A stretch of 64,000 nt of DNA from Opitutaceae bacterium. GTDB taxonomy: Bacteria > Verrucomicrobiota > Verrucomicrobiia > Opitutales > Opitutaceae. Position 1 is the first letter of the stretch; each line of letters begins with the position of its first letter. The stretch spans positions 51,297 through 115,296 of the forward strand of contig JAXMHM010000027.1 in the NCBI GenBank assembly GCA_046346755.1, in the 5' to 3' direction. The position numbers and the translations under genes are program-made. Below the pieces are notes generated by a model. It worked only from the letters and a program-made list of their open reading frames with translations, did not search any database and had not been told where the DNA came from. Of this stretch, positions 6,421 through 14,323 are shown one piece after another.

Positions 6421-7332
6421 ATGGCCACCGCCTACACCGCCTTTTTCGCCGCCTATCCCTGGTTCCTGCCCACGGTGGCCGCCGTGCTCGGGGCGATCGT
6501 CGGCAGCTTCCTCAACGTGGTCATCTACCGGGTGCCCGCCGGCAAATCCATCGTCTCGCCGGGATCCCACTGCGCCTGCGGTCAAGCCATCGCGTGGTAC
6601 GACAACATTCCGATCCTGAGCTGGTTCATCCTGCGAGGGCGGGCCCGGTGCTGCGGGCGTCCGTACTCCATCCGTTATGCCCTGATCGAAATGCTCGTGG
6701 CCGGGCTCTTTCTGGTCAGCTGGCTCAGTTTCTCGCCGGCCAAGGCGGTGGTGGGCTGGGTGCTGCTCAGCGGCCTGGTGTGCGCCACCTTCATCGATCT
6801 CGACCACATGATCATCCCCGACGTCTTCACCATCGGCGGCGGGTTGGTCGGGGTGGCGCTCTCCCTCCTTGTCCCCGCGCTGCACGGGTTCGGGGGCGAC
6901 CTGTGGGTGGCGGACGTCGTCCGGTCGGGCGTGGCGTCCCTCAAGGGTCTGCTCATCGGTTCCGGACTGGTGCTGTGGATTGCCCTGGTCGCCGAGGCCG
7001 TGCTCAAGAAGGAGGCAATGGGGTTTGGCGACGTCAAATTCGTCGGGGCCATCGGCGCCTTCTGTGGCTGGCAGGGTGCGGTCTGCAGTATTTTTGGCGG
7101 TGCGGTCGTCGGCACGCTCTGGGTCGCAATCGCCGTGCTGTGGAAACGCATCGGCGGCGCCAACGCACAGTCCCTCGCCCCGGCCGAAACCCCCGACGGC
7201 AAACCGGCTGATCTCGGTTTCGGGGTGCACGTGCCCTTCGGACCGATGCTCGCGGTCGCGGCCCTGCTCTATTTTCTCGTGGCCCACCGGTGGGTCGACC
7301 CCTACTTCGCGCAATTCGCCAGTCTCTTCTAA
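6421..7332 (+). CDS. prepilin peptidase (A24 family, type IV leader peptidase/N-methyltransferase)
   Basis: Cys-rich N-terminal segment (CxxC...CC), GFGDVKF catalytic-Asp motif, polytopic membrane protein. Confidence 0.9.
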   Translation: MATAYTAFFAAYPWFLPTVAAVLGAIVGSFLNVVIYRVPAGKSIVSPGSHCACGQAIAWYDNIPILSWFILRGRARCCGRPYSIRYALIEMLVAGLFLVSWLSFSPAKAVVGWVLLSGLVCATFIDLDHMIIPDVFTIGGGLVGVALSLLVPALHGFGGDLWVADVVRSGVASLKGLLIGSGLVLWIALVAEAVLKKEAMGFGDVKFVGAIGAFCGWQGAVCSIFGGAVVGTLWVAIAVLWKRIGGANAQSLAPAETPDGKPADLGFGVHVPFGPMLAVAALLYFLVAHRWVDPYFAQFASLF

Positions 7333-7387: not shown

Positions 7388-10300
7388 TCACCACTCGTAG
7401 ACTTCGATCAGGGCCACCCCGGTGGTTTCACCCACCCCGGATACCTTGGCCGAATAGGCGCCGGGCTGCAGGGTGCGCACAATCACGGCATCCTTGCTGC
7501 CTGCGGCCAGCGGAAACGCTCCGGCGCCCCGTCCGTCGTCGGTGTCCCAATTGTCATTGGTCGCCACCTTTTCGTCCCCTCGGTACAGCTCCAACGTGGG
7601 ATCAGCCAGCACGCCCGCGACTCCAAAGGTGCCAAGGGTGGGTCCCACCGCACGGACAAGGATGCGCCGCGGTCCATCGCCAACAATGACAAACCCGGCG
7701 ATCAGGACTTCACCGCCGGTACCCACCTGGCTGCGGGCCGACACATTCACCAGCCGCGGCCCGCCGTCGCTCGTGGGCGGATCGAGGTCATAGAGTTCCA
7801 CCAAGGCCACGCCGGGTTCGGCCGTGTCCAGCTTGGCTGAATACGCACCGGGAAACACCGGGGTGACCAGCGCCGCGTCCTTGGATCCCGGCGGGAGCGC
7901 GAAAGCTCCCACCGACAGGAAGCGCGCCGCGTCGGCCACAAGCCAGTTGTCATTGCGATCAAGCACCTGCGACGAGGAACCAATCACCTCCAACCGGGGA
8001 TTCGGAACCGTGCCAGGCACCCCAAACGCTGCCAGCGCCGGCCCGATCCCGCGGATGAGCAAACTCTTGGGGCCCTGCTGCACGGAAAAACCCACGATCA
8101 GGGTCCGATCACCCTGTCCCGCCGAGGACCGCACCGAGAGGTTTGCGAGGCGACTCGCATTCCCCGCCGGCAAGGGCGCTCCGTCGACGATCACGGTGGC
8201 ACCTTCGCTCGAAAGCGATCCCGTGGAGTCGGTCACCACCACCGTGTAGACACCGCTCTGGCTGCTCTGGAGATTGTTCAGGACCAAGGTGGAACTTGTG
8301 GCGCCCGGGATGGGTACACCGTTGTTTCTCCATTGGTAGCGCAGGGTGTCCGCGCCGGCCGCGGCCGTCGCCAGAGTCACGCTGCCACCAGCCGAAACCC
8401 GGGCCGGCCGCGGCTGCAGCGAGAAACGCAGCGGTCGGTCCACCGGCGAACCGGTGCGACGGCTGTTGTGACGGAACATGGGCCAGGCGCTGCTGGCCTC
8501 GTCGAGATCCAGCCGGATCGCATAGAGGCGGAAGTCGCCTCCACCGAAGTACAACATGCCACCATGAATCAGAGGGGACGACCTCACCTGTTGCGCGGTG
8601 TAGTAGGTGCGCCGCAGGGTGCCATCGCTGTTCAGCGCCACCAGGGTGCCGTCGAGCGTGCCAATGTAGATCGAACCGTCTGAGGCCACCGCGGGGGACG
8701 AGGTGCGAATTTCCGCCGCCACCTTGGTCGCCCAGCGCAGGGTGCCATCCGGATTGAGGGCCACGACTTTGCCGTCATAGGTGCCGAAATACACGGTGCC
8801 GTTCTCACCCAAGGCAGGGGACGAGGACGTGCCGGCTTCGAGGGCATACTGCCACTTGAGCGTGCCGTCCGGATTGACCGCAACAAACCGGCCCGTGAGG
8901 GTGCCGAGATAAAGGACTCCCGAGTTATCAATGGCGGGTGAAGTGTAAACCTCGCCACCAACATCGAGCGTCCACTTGACCACCCCGGCGGGGGTGTAAG
9001 CCCGGAGGATGCGGTCGGTCGAGGCAATGTAGACGGTGCCGTCGCGAGCCACGGTGGGCGAGGTGTAGGACTCGCCAAACAAGCCCACCAGCCACTTCCG
9101 GGTCCCGTCCGGGTTGATGGCATGCAAGGGTCCGTTTGTGCCCCGGGCATAGATTGTACCATCGGGACCGATGGCCGGCGACCCCTCGACCGCGCCGGTC
9201 ACCGTGTAACTCCACTTCACCGCTCCGTCCGCGGTGATGGACTCAACCCGGCCCGCGGAGTCGACCACAATCAGGGTCCCATCCGGCGCTGCGGCCGCCG
9301 ACGCATAGGTACCGTATCCAAACAATATATCCGACCAGAGCATTTCGCCAAGTGCGTTGACCGCGGCAACGCCCCCGAAATAGTCCACAAAGAGCGCCCC
9401 GCCCCCCGGGTGCGCCACCGGCGAGGAATAAACCGGGCCGTAGACGACCGACTGCCACTCGCTGTCGATCAGAGAAAAGATGAAGTTCCCACCCGGGCCC
9501 ACCGAATCCACCAGAAAATAATAGGTCCGACCTTCAATCGCGTCGAACGTCACCATCGGGTCGTAGATCACGCCCTGCGCGTCGTCGTCGCTGTCGAGCT
9601 CCACCAGCGTTTTCAGGCTCGTTCCCGAGTAGACTCCGAGAACACTGTCCATATCGTCACTGTAGATCGAGGCCTGGAAGCGCCGCGACTTCGGGGCCAC
9701 CCACTTGTACCAGACGGAGCGCCCGGAGGCCGTTTCAACCACCACGGGTTCGCCGCTCTCCGGGGAGGCTCCGCGTGAGTTTCCCGCCACCCGGAAACTC
9801 AGGCCGCTGACCACGGCAGCGGAGGAGAAGCTGTCATTGGTCAGAGGAATGGTGAGGTTGAGGATCACCAGCCCACCCGGAGCCGTGCGGGACTCGACCG
9901 CAATGGCGTAGGTGGTGCCTTTGATCGCGTTGATCGTCACCTGGCTGGTGACCAGGTCGCCATCATTGTCATTCGCAGCCACCTGGGTGAGCGCCGCGAT
10001 ATTGTTACCCGTGTAGACGGCCAGGCGCGTATCCACGGCGCTGCCCAGGGTGTCGATCCGGTAGGTTGCGGTGTCCGGGGCGTTCCACACCCACCAGACC
10101 GAACCGCCCCCCTCGGACGGTGCGGCGTGCTGCGGTTCATTCGACTGCCGGAGCGCGCCGAACGTGGAGCCGCGGGCGGAGACATAGCTGCCCCAGAGGA
10201 TGCCGGCCTCGCTGGTGCCGTCGTTGAAGGGGCGGGTCGTGGCGTCGAGTGCCCGGGAGACATTGAGACGGCCGCCGGTGTGGACCAGGGTTTGCAGCGC

Positions 10301-11623
10301 GGCCTTGACCTCCGCTCCGCGCAGGAGTCGGTTGACGGTGTGGGAAGGCAGATCGCTGGGAAACTGGGCGCACAGGAGGGCGACCGCCCCGCTGACGTGG
10401 GCGGCGGCAAAGGAGCTGCCCGAAACCGTGGCCAGGGGCGTCTCCGCACTCATGCCCAGGGTTCGGATGGCGACACCCGGGGCCGCCAGGTCGACATTGC
10501 CGCTTCCGTAGTTACTATTCAAAGACAATTGGTCATTGCGAGTTGACGCGGCCACGGCCACCACGTTTTCAATCAGGTGGCTCGCCGGATAGACCGGGAA
10601 AAGCGCGTTGTCGAACCCACCATTGCCGGCCGAGGCCACCACCAGGACACCGGCGTCGCGCAGCCGCTGGATCACCTCGAATTCAGCCTGCGAGTATTCG
10701 CTGAAGCCATAACTGGCGTTGATGACCTTCGCCCCCTTGGAGAGCGCATAGTGCATGCACTCGATGGCATCGGACACCGTGCCGGTGGTCGCCGAAGCCC
10801 GGAATTTCAGGGGCATAAGGCTCGCTTTCCAGGAGACCCCGGCCACTCCCAGGTTGTTGTTGCCCACGGCCCCGATGATGCCTGCCACCGCCGTGCCATG
10901 TCCCTCTCCTTGCGTCTCATTCGGATCGCCACTGCCGGGCTGGCCTTGCGGCACGAGGGCATTGATCCCGTGCACGTCGTCGATGTAGCCATTGCCATCA
11001 TCGTCCACCCCGTTGGTCTCCTTGCCGTTGCCGGATTCGCCTGGATTCGTCCACAGGTTCGCGGCGAGGTCGGGGTGGGCAAGATAAGCGCCTGAGTCAA
11101 TGATCGCCACAACCACCGACGACGAATCCGTTCGAACATCCCACGTCTCGGGGCCATCGATGTCGGCATCAAATCCTCCCTGATTCTGGCCGAGGTTGCT
11201 CAGCGCCCATTGCGCGCCCGAGCTGAACTCGGGGTCGTTCGGCACCCGGTGCGCGACGGTGAGTTGGTCCTTTTCGACGTAGGCGTAGCGTCCCGACGCA
11301 CGCAGGCGCTGGACAAAGGCCTCTGGAGACTCCCCTTCCGGCACCCGGATCACCTGCAACCCGCCGAATTGTTCATACTGACGCACCACGGCAAGGGCGC
11401 CCAGCCCGTCAACCCGCATGGCCCGGGACGGGGGGACTTCGCCACTCCGCGGCCGCGCCAGGACGACGGACGGTTGGTAATCCATGGTGCGACGAACCGG
11501 CTTTGCCGCGTGGTCGGGCGGGCGGCTCCATTCCCGCAGATCGCCCTCGCCCTGAGCGAGGACGGCGCACGCACCGAGGCTAAAGCAAAGAAAGCCAACA
11601 AATCGCATAAGCAAAAGCTTCAA
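7388..11623 (-). CDS. secreted multidomain S8 (subtilisin-family) serine protease, 1411 aa
   Basis: Signal peptide, propeptide-like region and an S8 domain with triad contexts AIIDSG (D176), HGTAVAG (H242) and SGSSFAAAH (S404). These are followed by two NDxF...GEP...SVWYxW-type beta-sandwich domains and PQQ/BamB-like propeller repeats (DGT.Y.. x about 8). Next come an Ig-like domain (LRYQWRNNG...GVYTVVV) and two C-terminal repeats. Confidence 0.9.
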   Translation of the reverse strand: MKLLLMRFVGFLCFSLGACAVLAQGEGDLREWSRPPDHAAKPVRRTMDYQPSVVLARPRSGEVPPSRAMRVDGLGALAVVRQYEQFGGLQVIRVPEGESPEAFVQRLRASGRYAYVEKDQLTVAHRVPNDPEFSSGAQWALSNLGQNQGGFDADIDGPETWDVRTDSSSVVVAIIDSGAYLAHPDLAANLWTNPGESGNGKETNGVDDDGNGYIDDVHGINALVPQGQPGSGDPNETQGEGHGTAVAGIIGAVGNNNLGVAGVSWKASLMPLKFRASATTGTVSDAIECMHYALSKGAKVINASYGFSEYSQAEFEVIQRLRDAGVLVVASAGNGGFDNALFPVYPASHLIENVVAVAASTRNDQLSLNSNYGSGNVDLAAPGVAIRTLGMSAETPLATVSGSSFAAAHVSGAVALLCAQFPSDLPSHTVNRLLRGAEVKAALQTLVHTGGRLNVSRALDATTRPFNDGTSEAGILWGSYVSARGSTFGALRQSNEPQHAAPSEGGGSVWWVWNAPDTATYRIDTLGSAVDTRLAVYTGNNIAALTQVAANDNDGDLVTSQVTINAIKGTTYAIAVESRTAPGGLVILNLTIPLTNDSFSSAAVVSGLSFRVAGNSRGASPESGEPVVVETASGRSVWYKWVAPKSRRFQASIYSDDMDSVLGVYSGTSLKTLVELDSDDDAQGVIYDPMVTFDAIEGRTYYFLVDSVGPGGNFIFSLIDSEWQSVVYGPVYSSPVAHPGGGALFVDYFGGVAAVNALGEMLWSDILFGYGTYASAAAAPDGTLIVVDSAGRVESITADGAVKWSYTVTGAVEGSPAIGPDGTIYARGTNGPLHAINPDGTRKWLVGLFGESYTSPTVARDGTVYIASTDRILRAYTPAGVVKWTLDVGGEVYTSPAIDNSGVLYLGTLTGRFVAVNPDGTLKWQYALEAGTSSSPALGENGTVYFGTYDGKVVALNPDGTLRWATKVAAEIRTSSPAVASDGSIYIGTLDGTLVALNSDGTLRRTYYTAQQVRSSPLIHGGMLYFGGGDFRLYAIRLDLDEASSAWPMFRHNSRRTGSPVDRPLRFSLQPRPARVSAGGSVTLATAAAGADTLRYQWRNNGVPIPGATSSTLVLNNLQSSQSGVYTVVVTDSTGSLSSEGATVIVDGAPLPAGNASRLANLSVRSSAGQGDRTLIVGFSVQQGPKSLLIRGIGPALAAFGVPGTVPNPRLEVIGSSSQVLDRNDNWLVADAARFLSVGAFALPPGSKDAALVTPVFPGAYSAKLDTAEPGVALVELYDLDPPTSDGGPRLVNVSARSQVGTGGEVLIAGFVIVGDGPRRILVRAVGPTLGTFGVAGVLADPTLELYRGDEKVATNDNWDTDDGRGAGAFPLAAGSKDAVIVRTLQPGAYSAKVSGVGETTGVALIEVYEW
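7391..8152 (-). repeat. tandem duplication of a 122-132 aa C-terminal domain inside the S8 protease gene
   Basis: Residues 1158-1289 and 1290-1411 align: RLxNxSxRSxxGxG...LIxGFxx...LxRxxGPxLxxFGVxG...P.LE...NDNW...GSKDA...PGAYSAK...GVALxExY. Confidence 0.7.
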
Positions 11624-11714
11624 TCGTGCAGGAAAGCCCGCGCAAGCTCGTAAACGACTGCAACTCAGCGTTCATCAACGCCGTCCACGGGGTGACCTCT
11701 CCTGCCTCGCGAGG

Positions 11715-12620
11715 TCAGGTCTGCGCTCGCACTCGATGGCGGGTTCGAAACACGCACCGGGAGCGCAAGGACTCCAGTCCAGGATGCTCGACTCCGCGGC
11801 CGGTGAAACGCACCAATCCAAACCGAACCGCCACCCCCACCAGCTGACCTCGATGCTGAAGTCCCAGCTTGAGGTGCAGCCGCTTTCGGTAGGCGTGCAC
11901 CGCCTGCGCGCTCAAGCCGATCCGATCAGCGGCCGCCTCGTCGTCGCAGCCTTCTCCGAGGATGGCCATGACGTACAGTTCAACCGGGCTGAGCAGTTTG
12001 GGCACGTGGGAGAGCGGCCCCTGGCCGTGGAGCACGTCGAGGCAGGAACCACTCCAATATGCACCCCCGCATCCAACCTGCCGGATGGCCTCCACCAGCC
12101 GGGCCACCCCATCGACCTGGGTATCGATTGCGCCGTGCGCCCCGAGCGTGCGCAGCGTGTGGATAACCATGGGAGCCGCCTGTTCGACCACCACGAGGAG
12201 GCGTTTACAGCGACCGAGCCGCCGGGACTGAGCCAGCAGATCAAGGACGTCGCCGTCCGCCAGGCTCGGCGAGGCCACCACCAAGTCCACTTCGGAGGTG
12301 GACAAACGCCGGCGCAGGCCCGCCACCTCGGTTTCCCGCCAAGACACCGCATGCGAGACACAGCTCAGCAGCGCCCGTTGCACCGCATCCGCCGCCAGGT
12401 GGTCGCTCACCGCAACCCCGACCGTGTGCACATGACTCAAGGTGGCCGGATCGCAGCACTCCGACTCCGATGGCAAGGGCGCCAGCAAGACTTCAGAGTT
12501 GGCATCCCGCTCGGACTCCAATCGAGGCCCAATTCCCCGCACTCCCGTTTCACGCGCGGCTTCAAAGGCGCGGTTTCCGTCTCTTTCACGCTCGGTTGAT
12601 CGCGGGAATGTGAGTGGCAT
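11715..12620 (-). CDS. LuxR/FixJ-type transcriptional regulator with a degenerate (pseudo-)receiver domain
   Basis: C-terminal LuxR HTH (LSPVELYVMAILGEGCDDEAAADRIGLSAQAVHAYRKRLHLKLG). The receiver-like region lacks the phospho-acceptor Asp (DLVVASPSL). The start is uncertain: the N-terminal ~60 aa is low complexity with no internal Met. Confidence 0.75.
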   Translation of the reverse strand: MPLTFPRSTERERDGNRAFEAARETGVRGIGPRLESERDANSEVLLAPLPSESECCDPATLSHVHTVGVAVSDHLAADAVQRALLSCVSHAVSWRETEVAGLRRRLSTSEVDLVVASPSLADGDVLDLLAQSRRLGRCKRLLVVVEQAAPMVIHTLRTLGAHGAIDTQVDGVARLVEAIRQVGCGGAYWSGSCLDVLHGQGPLSHVPKLLSPVELYVMAILGEGCDDEAAADRIGLSAQAVHAYRKRLHLKLGLQHRGQLVGVAVRFGLVRFTGRGVEHPGLESLRSRCVFRTRHRVRAQT

Positions 12621-12648
12621 GCGTTATTTGCCATATCATTGCGTTATT
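12621..12648. promoter_or_regulatory. direct repeat GCGTTATT-N12-GCGTTATT abutting the annotated LuxR start codon
   Basis: Exact 8-bp direct repeat at 12621-12628 and 12641-12648 (20-bp period) in a locally AT-rich patch. Confidence 0.3.
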
Positions 12649-12788
12649 CAAGCAAGGTCATTTCGCGTGGTTTTCCCTTTTTCCCGACCCTACGGGATCC
12701 CGGGAAATTGAGTCAGGGTTGGTCTCGTGGCCGTTCCCGCCCACCGGAGGAGTCCGGAACGAGTCTTTGCCGGCCTTTCGAACCCAGT

Positions 12789-12932
12789 CTAGAAGAGACG
12801 GGAGATCGATTCCTTGATCGCCGGCCAGTGGGTGAAAACGAGGTGGGTCGCATACCAGCCTGCCAAACCCGCGACAAGCCAGACCCAGGGGATCGCGCGC
12901 ATCAGGGAACGCAACGAGGAGAGGAAGTTCAT
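12789..12932 (-). CDS. 47-aa single-pass membrane peptide (candidate immunity/accessory protein)
   Basis: Hand translation: MNFLSSLRSLMRAIPWVWLVAGLAGWYATHLVFTHWPAIKESISRLF. It has one clear TM helix and lies directly downstream of the peptide pair. No SD sequence, and it follows a strong hairpin, so coding status is uncertain. Confidence 0.3.
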   Translation of the reverse strand: MNFLSSLRSLMRAIPWVWLVAGLAGWYATHLVFTHWPAIKESISRLF

Positions 12933-12943
12933 CGGCACGGGGT

Positions 12944-12972
12944 GCGCGGACGGCCGAGATCGCCGTCCGCGC
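12944..12972 (-). terminator. perfect 11-bp GC stem-loop between peptide B and the small membrane ORF (attenuator/stabiliser-type; no U-tract)
   Basis: GCGCGGACGGC-N7-GCCGTCCGCGC, starting 9 nt after the peptide B stop codon. Confidence 0.45.
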
Positions 12973-12980
12973 GACGAGGG

Positions 12981-13160
12981 TTAGTCCTTGAGTGCATAGG
13001 CCGCCGCCTCGAAGAGCGCCACCGTCCCGGCCAGGGGACCGAAGGCGACGTTCTCCAAGACGGACTTGCAGTAGGCCCCGATGAATTGTCCGAGATCGAC
13101 CACGGCGGATTCTCCTCCGGCCTGGACGAGTGCAAGGTCTGCAGCGGCGAGGTGTTTCAT
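12981..13160 (-). CDS. double-glycine-leader peptide B, 59 aa (bacteriocin/pheromone-like precursor)
   Basis: Not in the ORF track (<60 aa); hand translated as MKHLAAADLALVQAGG/ESAVVDLGQFIGAYCKSVLENVAFGPLAGTVALFEAAAYALKD. GAGGAA lies 7 nt upstream of the ATG. Two GxxxG motifs are present. Confidence 0.6.
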   Translation of the reverse strand: MKHLAAADLALVQAGGESAVVDLGQFIGAYCKSVLENVAFGPLAGTVALFEAAAYALKD

Positions 13161-13175
13161 GGGTGATTCCTCGCG

Positions 13176-13352
13176 TCAGACATTATTCCAGCCGTCCGCC
13201 ACCGCGTCTTTGAACTGACCCCAGTTGTCGTAGACGTTTTTGGCCACGTAGCCAAACGAGGCGATCGCCACCGAGATGAGGATCGCGGTGCCGCTGATCG
13301 GTTCAACGCCGCCCTGAATCGAGGCGGCTTCCTGCTGTGTCATGGTTTTCAT
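13176..13352 (-). CDS. double-glycine-leader peptide A, 58 aa (bacteriocin/pheromone-like precursor)
   Basis: Internal ATG of ORF 13176..13436: MKTMTQQEAASIQGG/VEPISGTAILISVAIASFGYVAKNVYDNWGQFKDAVADGWNNV. E at -8, I at -4, GG at -2/-1. The longer ORF-track N-terminus is Arg-rich and implausible. Confidence 0.65.
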   Translation of the reverse strand: MKTMTQQEAASIQGGVEPISGTAILISVAIASFGYVAKNVYDNWGQFKDAVADGWNNV

Positions 13353-13666
13353 ACTGTGTTCTGCTGTTGGGATGGCCCGCAGTCGCCGGTCGACCACTGC
13401 GGTCGTCCGATTGCGGGAAGGGGGGAACGGCGCCACCCAAGCGGCGCACCTCGGTGTACTTCGAAGGGAAACGCATTCGGCGTCGGCTGCGGTGACCCGA
13501 GGGTTGGTTCATGGGTTCAGGCATGAGGGGGGAGACAGGAGGCCGAAAGGCGGGGATTGTCCCAATTTATGGCCCCTTCTGCCCTTTTTAGGGCCAGGCC
13601 TTCACGGCCCGACACGTCCGATTGTCGCTTGGCCTTTTTACGGACGTCACCCAGGTTGGAGGATCT

Positions 13667-14323
13667 ATGCCCAGCGAGTCCTTTCAGATTCCCATCGCCT
13701 TCGATCTCGGCGCCACGGTCACCTTTGCGGTGACCGGTGCGATGGCCGCCCGGCGACGCGGTTACGACATCGTGGGCCTCTTCTTCCTCGCGCTCGCTTC
13801 CGGGCTCGGAGGGGGTCTGATCCGAGATGGTCTGTTTATCCAACAGGGTCCTCCGGCCTTGATGACGGATGGACGATACCTATGGGCCGTGCTGGTCGGC
13901 GGCGCCGCCGGGGTCCTCCTCGGTGAGCGACTCACCCGTCTGGCCCGCGCCATCGCCCTCATCGACGCGGTGGGCCTGGGAGCCTACGCCGTCGTGGGTG
14001 TGCAGAAATCCCTCGCCGCCGGACTCGCCGTTCCCGCCGCCATCCTGGTGGGCGTGATCAATGCCGCGGGGGGTGGAGTGCTGCGCGATGTGCTCACACG
14101 CGAGGAGCCCCTGGTGTTCAAACCGGGTCAGTTCTACGTGCTCATCGCCCTGGCCGGAGCGATCGTCTTTGTGGTGCTCTGTCAGCAAACCTACCTGACG
14201 ACCACCGCCGCCGCGCTCATCGCGATTGCCCTGACGTTTCTCCTGCGCACCCTGACCATTGTCTTCAACTGGAAGACGAACGCCCTCGACGCCCCACCTC
14301 CCTCCCCTCGTCCCCCGACCTGA
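13667..14323 (+). CDS. trimeric intracellular cation channel (TRIC/UPF0126, YadS-like) family membrane protein
   Basis: Two UPF0126 repeats with glycine-rich motifs (ASGLGGGLIRD and NAAGGGVLRD). Start set at the ATG at 13667. Confidence 0.85.
   Translation: MPSESFQIPIAFDLGATVTFAVTGAMAARRRGYDIVGLFFLALASGLGGGLIRDGLFIQQGPPALMTDGRYLWAVLVGGAAGVLLGERLTRLARAIALIDAVGLGAYAVVGVQKSLAAGLAVPAAILVGVINAAGGGVLRDVLTREEPLVFKPGQFYVLIALAGAIVFVVLCQQTYLTTTAAALIAIALTFLLRTLTIVFNWKTNALDAPPPSPRPPT

Follow-up and report, generated by a model that had tools for sequence, protein, structure and literature searches.

A conserved double-glycine peptide cassette with a pseudo-receiver regulator and without a linked exporter in Opitutaceae

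A stretch of 64,000 nucleotides from an Opitutaceae bacterium of the Verrucomicrobiota (GenBank assembly GCA_046346755.1, contig JAXMHM010000027.1, positions 51,297 to 115,296 of the forward strand), called the window below and numbered from its first letter, carries two adjacent genes for short peptides with double-glycine (GG) leaders, here named pepA and pepB, followed by a small membrane open reading frame (ORF) and a gene for a LuxR-type regulator. These four genes, together with a hairpin behind pepB, are a conserved functional unit, and the block of five genes that also takes in a giant S8 protease is not one unit. We judge it probable that the four genes represent an exporter-less two-peptide cassette of the class II microcin or class IIb bacteriocin type with a dedicated regulator.

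Results and Discussion

Two tandem peptides with double-glycine leaders

Both peptides bear GG leaders of the bacteriocin kind, as a sequence-only reading of the window had proposed. Leaders of this class have about 15-25 amino acids, end in GG, GA or GS, and are acidic at position -8 and hydrophobic at -4, -7 and -12. The precursor encoded by pepA (13176-13352, minus strand; 58 amino acids) is MKTMTQQEAASIQGG, and its leader has G-1, G-2, I-4, A-7, E-8 and M-12; in an alignment of six Opitutaceae orthologues, G-2/G-1 and E-8 are invariant. The core of 43 amino acids consists of one hydrophobic helix and has the invariant C-terminus FK(D/E/A)AVADGWN. Against TIGR03949, the family of class IIb bacteriocins that includes lactobin A and cerein 7B, pepA scores 23.2 bits, above the curated cutoff of 21.5, and five of six orthologues match the same family at E <= 1.

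The second gene, pepB (12981-13160, minus strand), encodes a precursor of 59 amino acids, MKHLAAADLALVQAGG, likewise with a 43-amino-acid core. Its alignment shows a GxxxG motif (GQFIG), which is found in pepB and not in pepA, and a conserved TGTVAFFEA segment. The GG of the leader is invariant across lineages in both peptides, the one exception being pepB of locus L039, which reads AGS, i.e., GS. When a pepB profile was searched against 1.84 billion cluster representatives, there were seven matches only, four of which are small peptides. Between exporter-less lineages, the ratio of nonsynonymous to synonymous substitution rates (dN/dS) is 0.07-0.44 for pepA and 0.07-0.27 for pepB; with such low values, both peptides are under purifying selection. 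Error-free metatranscriptome contigs lie over the peptide genes in four runs and over parts of the S8 gene in three, at a depth too low and too fragmentary to join genes or to infer operon structure.

A palindrome that occurs once in the window, GCCCT-N4-AGGGC (13581-13594), lies upstream of pepA, and 10 of 15 loci have it there at a distance of 113-242 nucleotides; it may serve as an operator, or else as the terminator of the upstream gene. A lanthipeptide interpretation of the two peptides was considered and rejected: pepA is without Cys, pepB has one Cys, which is not conserved, and nothing nearby encodes a modification enzyme.

A conserved hairpin and a small membrane protein

Directly behind the stop codon of pepB lies a GC-rich hairpin without a U-tract (12944-12972, minus strand). 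Each of the 11 lineages that were folded has a stem of 9-14 bp at this place, with a sequence of its own. A simple promoter and terminator scan of the window gave no matches, so that this hairpin was not called a terminator. In operons for bacteriocins or for peptides made on the ribosome and modified after translation, stems of this sort set the ratio of precursor to accessory transcripts, and the pepB hairpin fits such a role.

The small ORF (12789-12938, minus strand; 49 amino acids) encodes a single-pass membrane protein. In all lineages it stands directly downstream of the peptides, the position of an immunity gene, with a length of 37-49 amino acids and the motif GW...W..(I/L/M)K......F. 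Immunity genes of microcins are small membrane ORFs next to the peptide gene (PMC12219008), and the window's ORF matches this description; by analogy, its product is likely an immunity factor. As a separate observation, pepA in its C-terminal half resembles the small ORF in having a helix and, behind it, W-x-x-(F/I)-K-(D/E)-x-(V/I). The likeness is weak (hhalign probability 34%, pairwise E 4e-4, 24 columns) and is not relied on here; the two may be distant paralogues or may have converged.

A four-gene core kept together across the family

To place the window among its relatives, the genomic contexts of pepA and regulator homologues were compared, and species-representative genomes and metagenomes were scanned with the pepA profile. 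By source names, the organism comes from samples of wastewater and activated sludge. The order pepA, pepB, small ORF, regulator is found in every exporter-less locus whose contig reaches far enough. The four-gene core is kept together in about 16 distinct Opitutaceae lineages, between which the identity of the regulator falls to about 40%, and the genes around it (TRIC, ilvA and S8) vary between lineages. The sequence-only reading had joined the peptides, the LuxR-type regulator and the S8 protease in one module. The link between peptides and regulator stood up in these approximately 16 lineages; the link to S8 did not, with an S8 gene present in 5 of 15 informative lineages.

No exporter at the window, and an exporter-linked version in related genomes

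The earlier remark that no dedicated exporter accompanies the peptides holds across the whole 64-kb window. Pfam scans of the 10 largest other ORFs in the window gave no C39 or ABC domain, and no ORF in the window has both a Walker A and an LSGGQ motif. Searches by tblastn with the peptidase-containing ATP-binding transporter (PCAT) and the membrane fusion protein (MFP) of a related locus, L033, found no match in the window or in any exporter-less module locus.

Locus L033 (7401-12322), along with L034 and L035, contains the same kind of peptides in a fuller setting. The first gene encodes a response regulator with REC and GerE domains whose phospho-acceptor is intact (VVLDVVLPDGDG), and the second an MFP of the HlyD/AprE type. 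They are followed by a pepA homologue of 61 amino acids that keeps ...KDIYDNWGAFKKAVADGWNAV, and by P0138, one of the four small peptides matched by the pepB profile and a distant pepB homologue, upstream of the C39-ABC exporter gene. A hairpin comes after P0138, then an unannotated membrane ORF of about 42 amino acids (~10010-10138 in L033) that matches the window's small ORF (...GWGLAHIVMSNWAQLKAIIQGWFS), and finally a C39-ABC exporter of 712 amino acids. The source names of these loci are Opitutae and Candidatus Didemnitutus metagenome-assembled genomes (MAGs), apparently of the same bacterial family as the window. One such Opitutae MAG lists its regulator and the PFK downstream of it under consecutive accession numbers, which suggests that the MFP-peptides-PCAT segment is itself a variable insertion or deletion.

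Judging from these loci, the canonical partners of the peptide family in processing and export are a C39-ABC transporter and an MFP, as in class II microcins, and what the window holds looks like a derivative, without exporter, of a class II microcin-like cassette with two peptides.

A NarL/LuxR-type regulator without phospho-acceptor

The regulator gene (11715-12620, minus strand) is annotated with 301 amino acids. Its first ~44 annotated codons are not conserved in relatives, where the conserved protein begins LAPLP; the true start is probably near 12488 (TTG, MLAPLPSE...). The receiver had been described beforehand as lacking the phospho-acceptor Asp, and alignments bear out that it is a true pseudo-receiver. 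In a phmmer alignment to DevR (3c3w), a Ser of the window's regulator stands opposite the phospho-acceptor Asp, and all 12 aligned orthologues have Ser or Ala at this position and Thr or Ser at that of the conserved Lys. An AlphaFold2 model built on the orthologue alignment (pLDDT 87.8, pTM 0.83) shows a (beta-alpha)5 receiver, a helix-turn-helix (HTH) domain, and a short extra beta-hairpin and helix; the HTH (GerE, PF00196) occupies amino acids 209-263. Foldseek matches of the model include EvgA, RcsB, VraR and NarL, with E values down to 2e-10, and also FixJ and VpsT. The protein thus has the receiver fold and the LuxR/GerE HTH of the NarL/FixJ type, and lacks the phospho-acceptor Asp and the Lys of that type. 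A conserved extension of about 30 amino acids after the HTH (11715-11830 in the window), RFT..GVE(H/R)PGLE.LR.R.VFR.RR, is modelled as the beta-hairpin and short helix and is unusual among NarL-family proteins. The family is tiny, with eight clusters among 5.8 billion protein clusters, and all eight are in peptide loci.

The region upstream of the regulator gene (12621-12706, minus strand) is promoter-like, with an inverted repeat, an A-rich tract and a CTTG..N17..-10-like arrangement. The inverted repeat, TTCCCG-N14-CGGGAA (12681-12706), is unique in the window. Most lineages keep this layout, the spacer being either 7 or 14 nucleotides long, and it is not evident in the most divergent ones, L024 and L025; an 8-bp direct repeat at 12621-12648 is not kept in relatives.

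Since the phospho-acceptor has been lost in every member, some other input must control the regulator, and the sequence-only reading had offered that the regulator senses the peptide directly rather than through phosphorylation. The peptides would then be signals, and the LuxR-type protein would bind a peptide or a fragment derived from it. The strict co-occurrence of peptides and regulator, the fixed chromosomal site and the purifying selection on the peptides agree with this proposal, as do the presence of VpsT among the fold matches and the conserved extra segment after the HTH. Pseudo-receivers controlled by ligands or partner proteins exist (PMC12632262, PMC4395418). On the other hand, in L033 these peptides are accompanied by an exporter and by an ordinary regulator that can be phosphorylated, which is a bacteriocin-type layout, and the conserved immunity-like ORF points to toxicity. 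Moreover, the co-occurrence is confounded by the vertical inheritance of a single locus, and no receiver domain with a GG-leader peptide as its ligand is known to us. Direct peptide sensing by the regulator is therefore held to be improbable.

A proposed two-peptide bacteriocin cassette

Under the bacteriocin reading, pepA and pepB would be the GG-leader precursors of a single two-peptide bacteriocin with antibacterial activity, and the small membrane protein would likely provide immunity. The hairpin after pepB would keep the peptide transcripts in excess of those of the downstream genes, and control of the cassette, independent of phosphorylation, would fall to the NarL/LuxR-family regulator, expressed from a promoter of its own. 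In its ancestral or canonical form, the cassette would have possessed its own type I secretion genes (C39-ABC and MFP) as well as a regulator that can be phosphorylated; the window's lineage would depend for leader cleavage and export on a PCAT and an MFP whose genes lie elsewhere in the genome. That the exporter-less cassette is functional seems well indicated by purifying selection, the invariant GG and E-8, the hairpin, the promoter-like region and the metatranscripts.

Several observations weigh against this reading. The pepB leader (13113-13160) is one residue off the -4/-7/-12 register, it has Ala where the PCAT-linked homologue P0138 has the canonical -2 Gly, and pepB matches no curated family, TIGR03949 included. 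The mature peptides are anionic, with a net charge of -1 to -4 in the eight cores examined. Typical class IIb bacteriocins are cationic, and pepA and pepB do not form the cationic pair with GxxxG motifs that defines this class; several class II microcins are anionic. No operator is common to the upstream regions of pepA and the LuxR-type gene, each of which has its own conserved palindrome. The cassette also sits, well conserved, at one fixed chromosomal site throughout the family, and bacteriocin loci are usually patchy and quick to change. The anionic cores, the fixed site, the shifted pepB leader and the missing exporter leave some room for two less ordinary readings, the peptide-sensing circuit above and small membrane proteins retained by the producer. 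In a further scenario, a former bacteriocin cassette would have been domesticated into a chromosomal, family-wide circuit, in which the peptides or the small membrane protein control the pseudo-receiver in place of phosphorylation and the peptides have taken on a role in signalling or in the cell envelope; to this scenario we assign a low probability.

A further difficulty concerns export. No exporter was found within 8-10 kb in any of the approximately 16 exporter-less lineages, nor within the 64 kb of the window, and if none exists in the genome, the peptides are not secretable by the known route. Alternatively, export may have been truly lost, with the three small proteins acting inside the producer as residents of its membrane and the GG leader being a relic. 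Besides the missing exporter, the Ala at the canonical -2 Gly position of pepB would be in keeping with such a loss, as would the layout common to pepA and the small ORF, a membrane helix with W-x-x-(F/I)-K-(D/E) (at the hhalign probability of 34% given above), and the housekeeping-like positional stability of the cassette. However, the GG and the acidic and hydrophobic positions of the leader are invariant under purifying selection, which is unexpected in a relic, and PCATs commonly serve unlinked substrates. A true loss of export is accordingly regarded as unlikely, and the bacteriocin cassette with export in trans is preferred.

The S8 protease as a facultative neighbour

The S8 subtilase gene (7388-11623, minus strand; 1411 amino acids) is the last element of the block. 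Its product had been described as a subtilisin with a propeller, an Ig-like domain and repeat domains, and this domain stack was recovered in full. By Pfam, amino acids 168-435 are Peptidase_S8, ~780-1040 a beta-propeller of the PQQ/BamB type and 1066-1146 an Ig domain; DSG176, HGT242 and GSSFA402 make up the catalytic motifs. Two internal duplications were seen when segments were compared with one another, amino acids 1150-1280 with 1281-1411 (45% identity, E 1e-29) and 480-600 with 601-725 (33% identity, E 1e-16); a blastp comparison of the whole protein against itself showed none. Like proteases of the LanP/CylA/LicP type, the protein combines the S8 triad with a secretion signal, a hydrophobic N-terminus ending in LGAC/AVLA; the conserved linkage to precursor genes that also marks this type is missing. 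The N-terminus (11560-11623; MKLLLMRFVGFLCFSLGAC) contains a lipobox-like LGAC; instead of being freely secreted, the protease may carry a lipid anchor.

An S8 gene lies between the regulator and the A24 prepilin peptidase gene in the window together with its closest relative L018, and in L001, L015, L026 and L039; in the other 10 of the 15 informative lineages, peptides and LuxR-type gene occur without an adjacent S8. The flanks of L004 and L001 are 99.2-99.5% identical, but where L001 has an S8 segment of 4374 bp, L004 has 58 bp; given the near-identity of the flanks, S8 is present or absent within one species. In L039 (9623-13122) and L041 (7832-10659), which were assembled independently, the reading frame of S8 is broken just behind the catalytic Ser motif (GTSFAAP), and the Ig domain and one C-terminal repeat are also gone; this is probably a decaying copy. 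The S8 of the window is 86% identical to that of L018 (2331-6566), and the flanking proteins are 96-99% identical. Along the alignment of these two S8 proteins, blocks of 66-81% identity lie in the middle (~300-800) and 97-100% is reached at the C-terminus, a pattern that suggests recombination or diversifying change.

The family that combines S8, propeller and Ig domains is large, with >2110 matches at E <= 1e-20 and three paralogues on one genome-sized contig of 8 Mb. Three of the closest full-length relatives of the window's S8 (46-52% identity) have unrelated genes around them, and neither peptides nor a LuxR-type gene is nearby: one with carbamoyl-phosphate synthase and thioredoxin, one with DUF6157 and a PAS kinase, and one in a third, different context. 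One of the three, L029, has 52% identity and falls in the sister clade of the window's S8; its MAG is also that of L024, a locus with the peptide module but without S8 beside it. In the tree of the catalytic domain, this sister clade of the window clade contains both module-adjacent (L026) and non-adjacent members, and in trees of the flanking genes S8 adjacency appears in two deep clades. The simplest reading would be either an old adjacency that was lost repeatedly or a mobile gene; the cassette persists without S8 either way.

The sequence-only reading had, as one of two possible arrangements, assigned the processing or turnover of the peptides to this protease, on the model of host subtilisins that process Phr-type peptides in Bacillus. 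One form of this would be a second trimming step after GG cleavage, for which CylA and LicP of two-peptide lantibiotics are the actual precedent. The enzymes CylA and LicP cleave after Glu, trimming a short N-terminal extension that follows PCAT cleavage (PMC10885120), and pepA of all S8-bearing loci has an acidic residue and then Pro just after the GG (EP; DP in L039). In addition, S8 stands directly downstream of the regulator in both deep clades, one of them the window clade and the other that of L026 and L039, the module-adjacent proteins fall into one orthogroup of the S8 tree so that the adjacency may be ancestral, and S8 fragments occur in the same metatranscriptomes as the peptides. 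Against these points, the post-GG Glu is found in S8-less lineages as well, and S8 is missing from 10 of 15 lineages, cleanly deleted in a 99%-identical population and frameshifted in L039 and L041. The closest off-locus relatives and the size of the family tell in the same direction. At 1411 amino acids with a propeller, the protein is also unlike the shorter LanP-type enzymes, and an extracellular protease would leave the export problem unsolved. Because the peptides occur without S8 and S8 occurs without the peptides, the synteny expected of the proposed partnership is missing in both directions, and maturation or turnover of the peptides by S8 is considered very unlikely. The S8 protease is a facultative neighbour, an independently evolving secreted protease that the cassette does not require.

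Boundaries of the block

Window genes were taken from the ORF listing together with Pfam and NCBIfam scans. These agree with the earlier description of five co-directional minus-strand elements between a divergent and a convergent gene. The divergent boundary is a Gly_transporter/TRIC gene (13622-14323, plus strand; PF03458); many relatives lack it at the locus and have PTR2 directly next to pepA. The convergent boundary is the A24 prepilin peptidase gene (6421-7332, plus strand; PF06750 and PF01478), which in S8-less loci is directly convergent on the regulator gene. Since the cassette always has the A24 gene in convergent orientation to it, pepA and pepB were considered as prepilin peptidase substrates. 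This was rejected from the sequences: the Glu after the GG is at +1/+2 rather than +5 and is not conserved (missing in L010, L022 and L023), and pepB has no hydrophobic stretch after the GG.

Relation to known systems

A class II microcin cluster comprises a pre-microcin, an immunity protein, a CvaB-like PCAT and a CvaA-like MFP (PMC12219008). The window's cassette resembles MccV-type class II microcins in its short GG leader, unmodified hydrophobic core and adjacent small membrane ORF, and L033 resembles them further in the full PCAT and MFP pair that flanks the peptides. Unlike class II microcins, the window has two tandem peptides, no PCAT or MFP at the locus, a LuxR-type pseudo-receiver and a host in the Verrucomicrobiota. 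With the class IIb bacteriocins (lactobin A / cerein 7B, TIGR03949) it shares a pepA above the family cutoff, two adjacent peptide genes of similar size, GxxxG in pepB and an ORF in the immunity position; it differs from them in its anionic cores, a pepB without a family match, a Gram-negative-type host and the absence of HPK10/LytTR three-component regulation.

The regulator is comparable to atypical NarL-family regulators such as VpsT and the Streptomyces proteins JadR1 and RedZ, in which a REC fold and a LuxR HTH are likewise combined with replacement of Asp and Lys. It is set apart from them by its tiny, lineage-restricted family, its C-terminal extension of ~30 amino acids and its constant place downstream of GG-peptide genes. 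The S8 protein recalls CylA and LicP of the two-peptide lantibiotics in being a secreted subtilase near two GG-leader peptide genes, but the window differs from those systems in having no conserved Cys and no LanM, in the propeller, Ig domain and repeats of a protein of 1411 amino acids, and in a linkage that is not conserved.

Literature searches found no description of such a peptide system in Verrucomicrobiota, and the small GG peptides reported here form a family new to description in this phylum. The tempting link between the peptides and the giant protease has been removed as unsupported. What remains is a natural pair within one bacterial family: a version with an exporter and a phosphorylatable regulator, and an exporter-less version whose regulator has concurrently lost phosphorylation. 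The paired versions make it testable how GG peptides are handled where no exporter is linked to them, and what switches a pseudo-receiver on.

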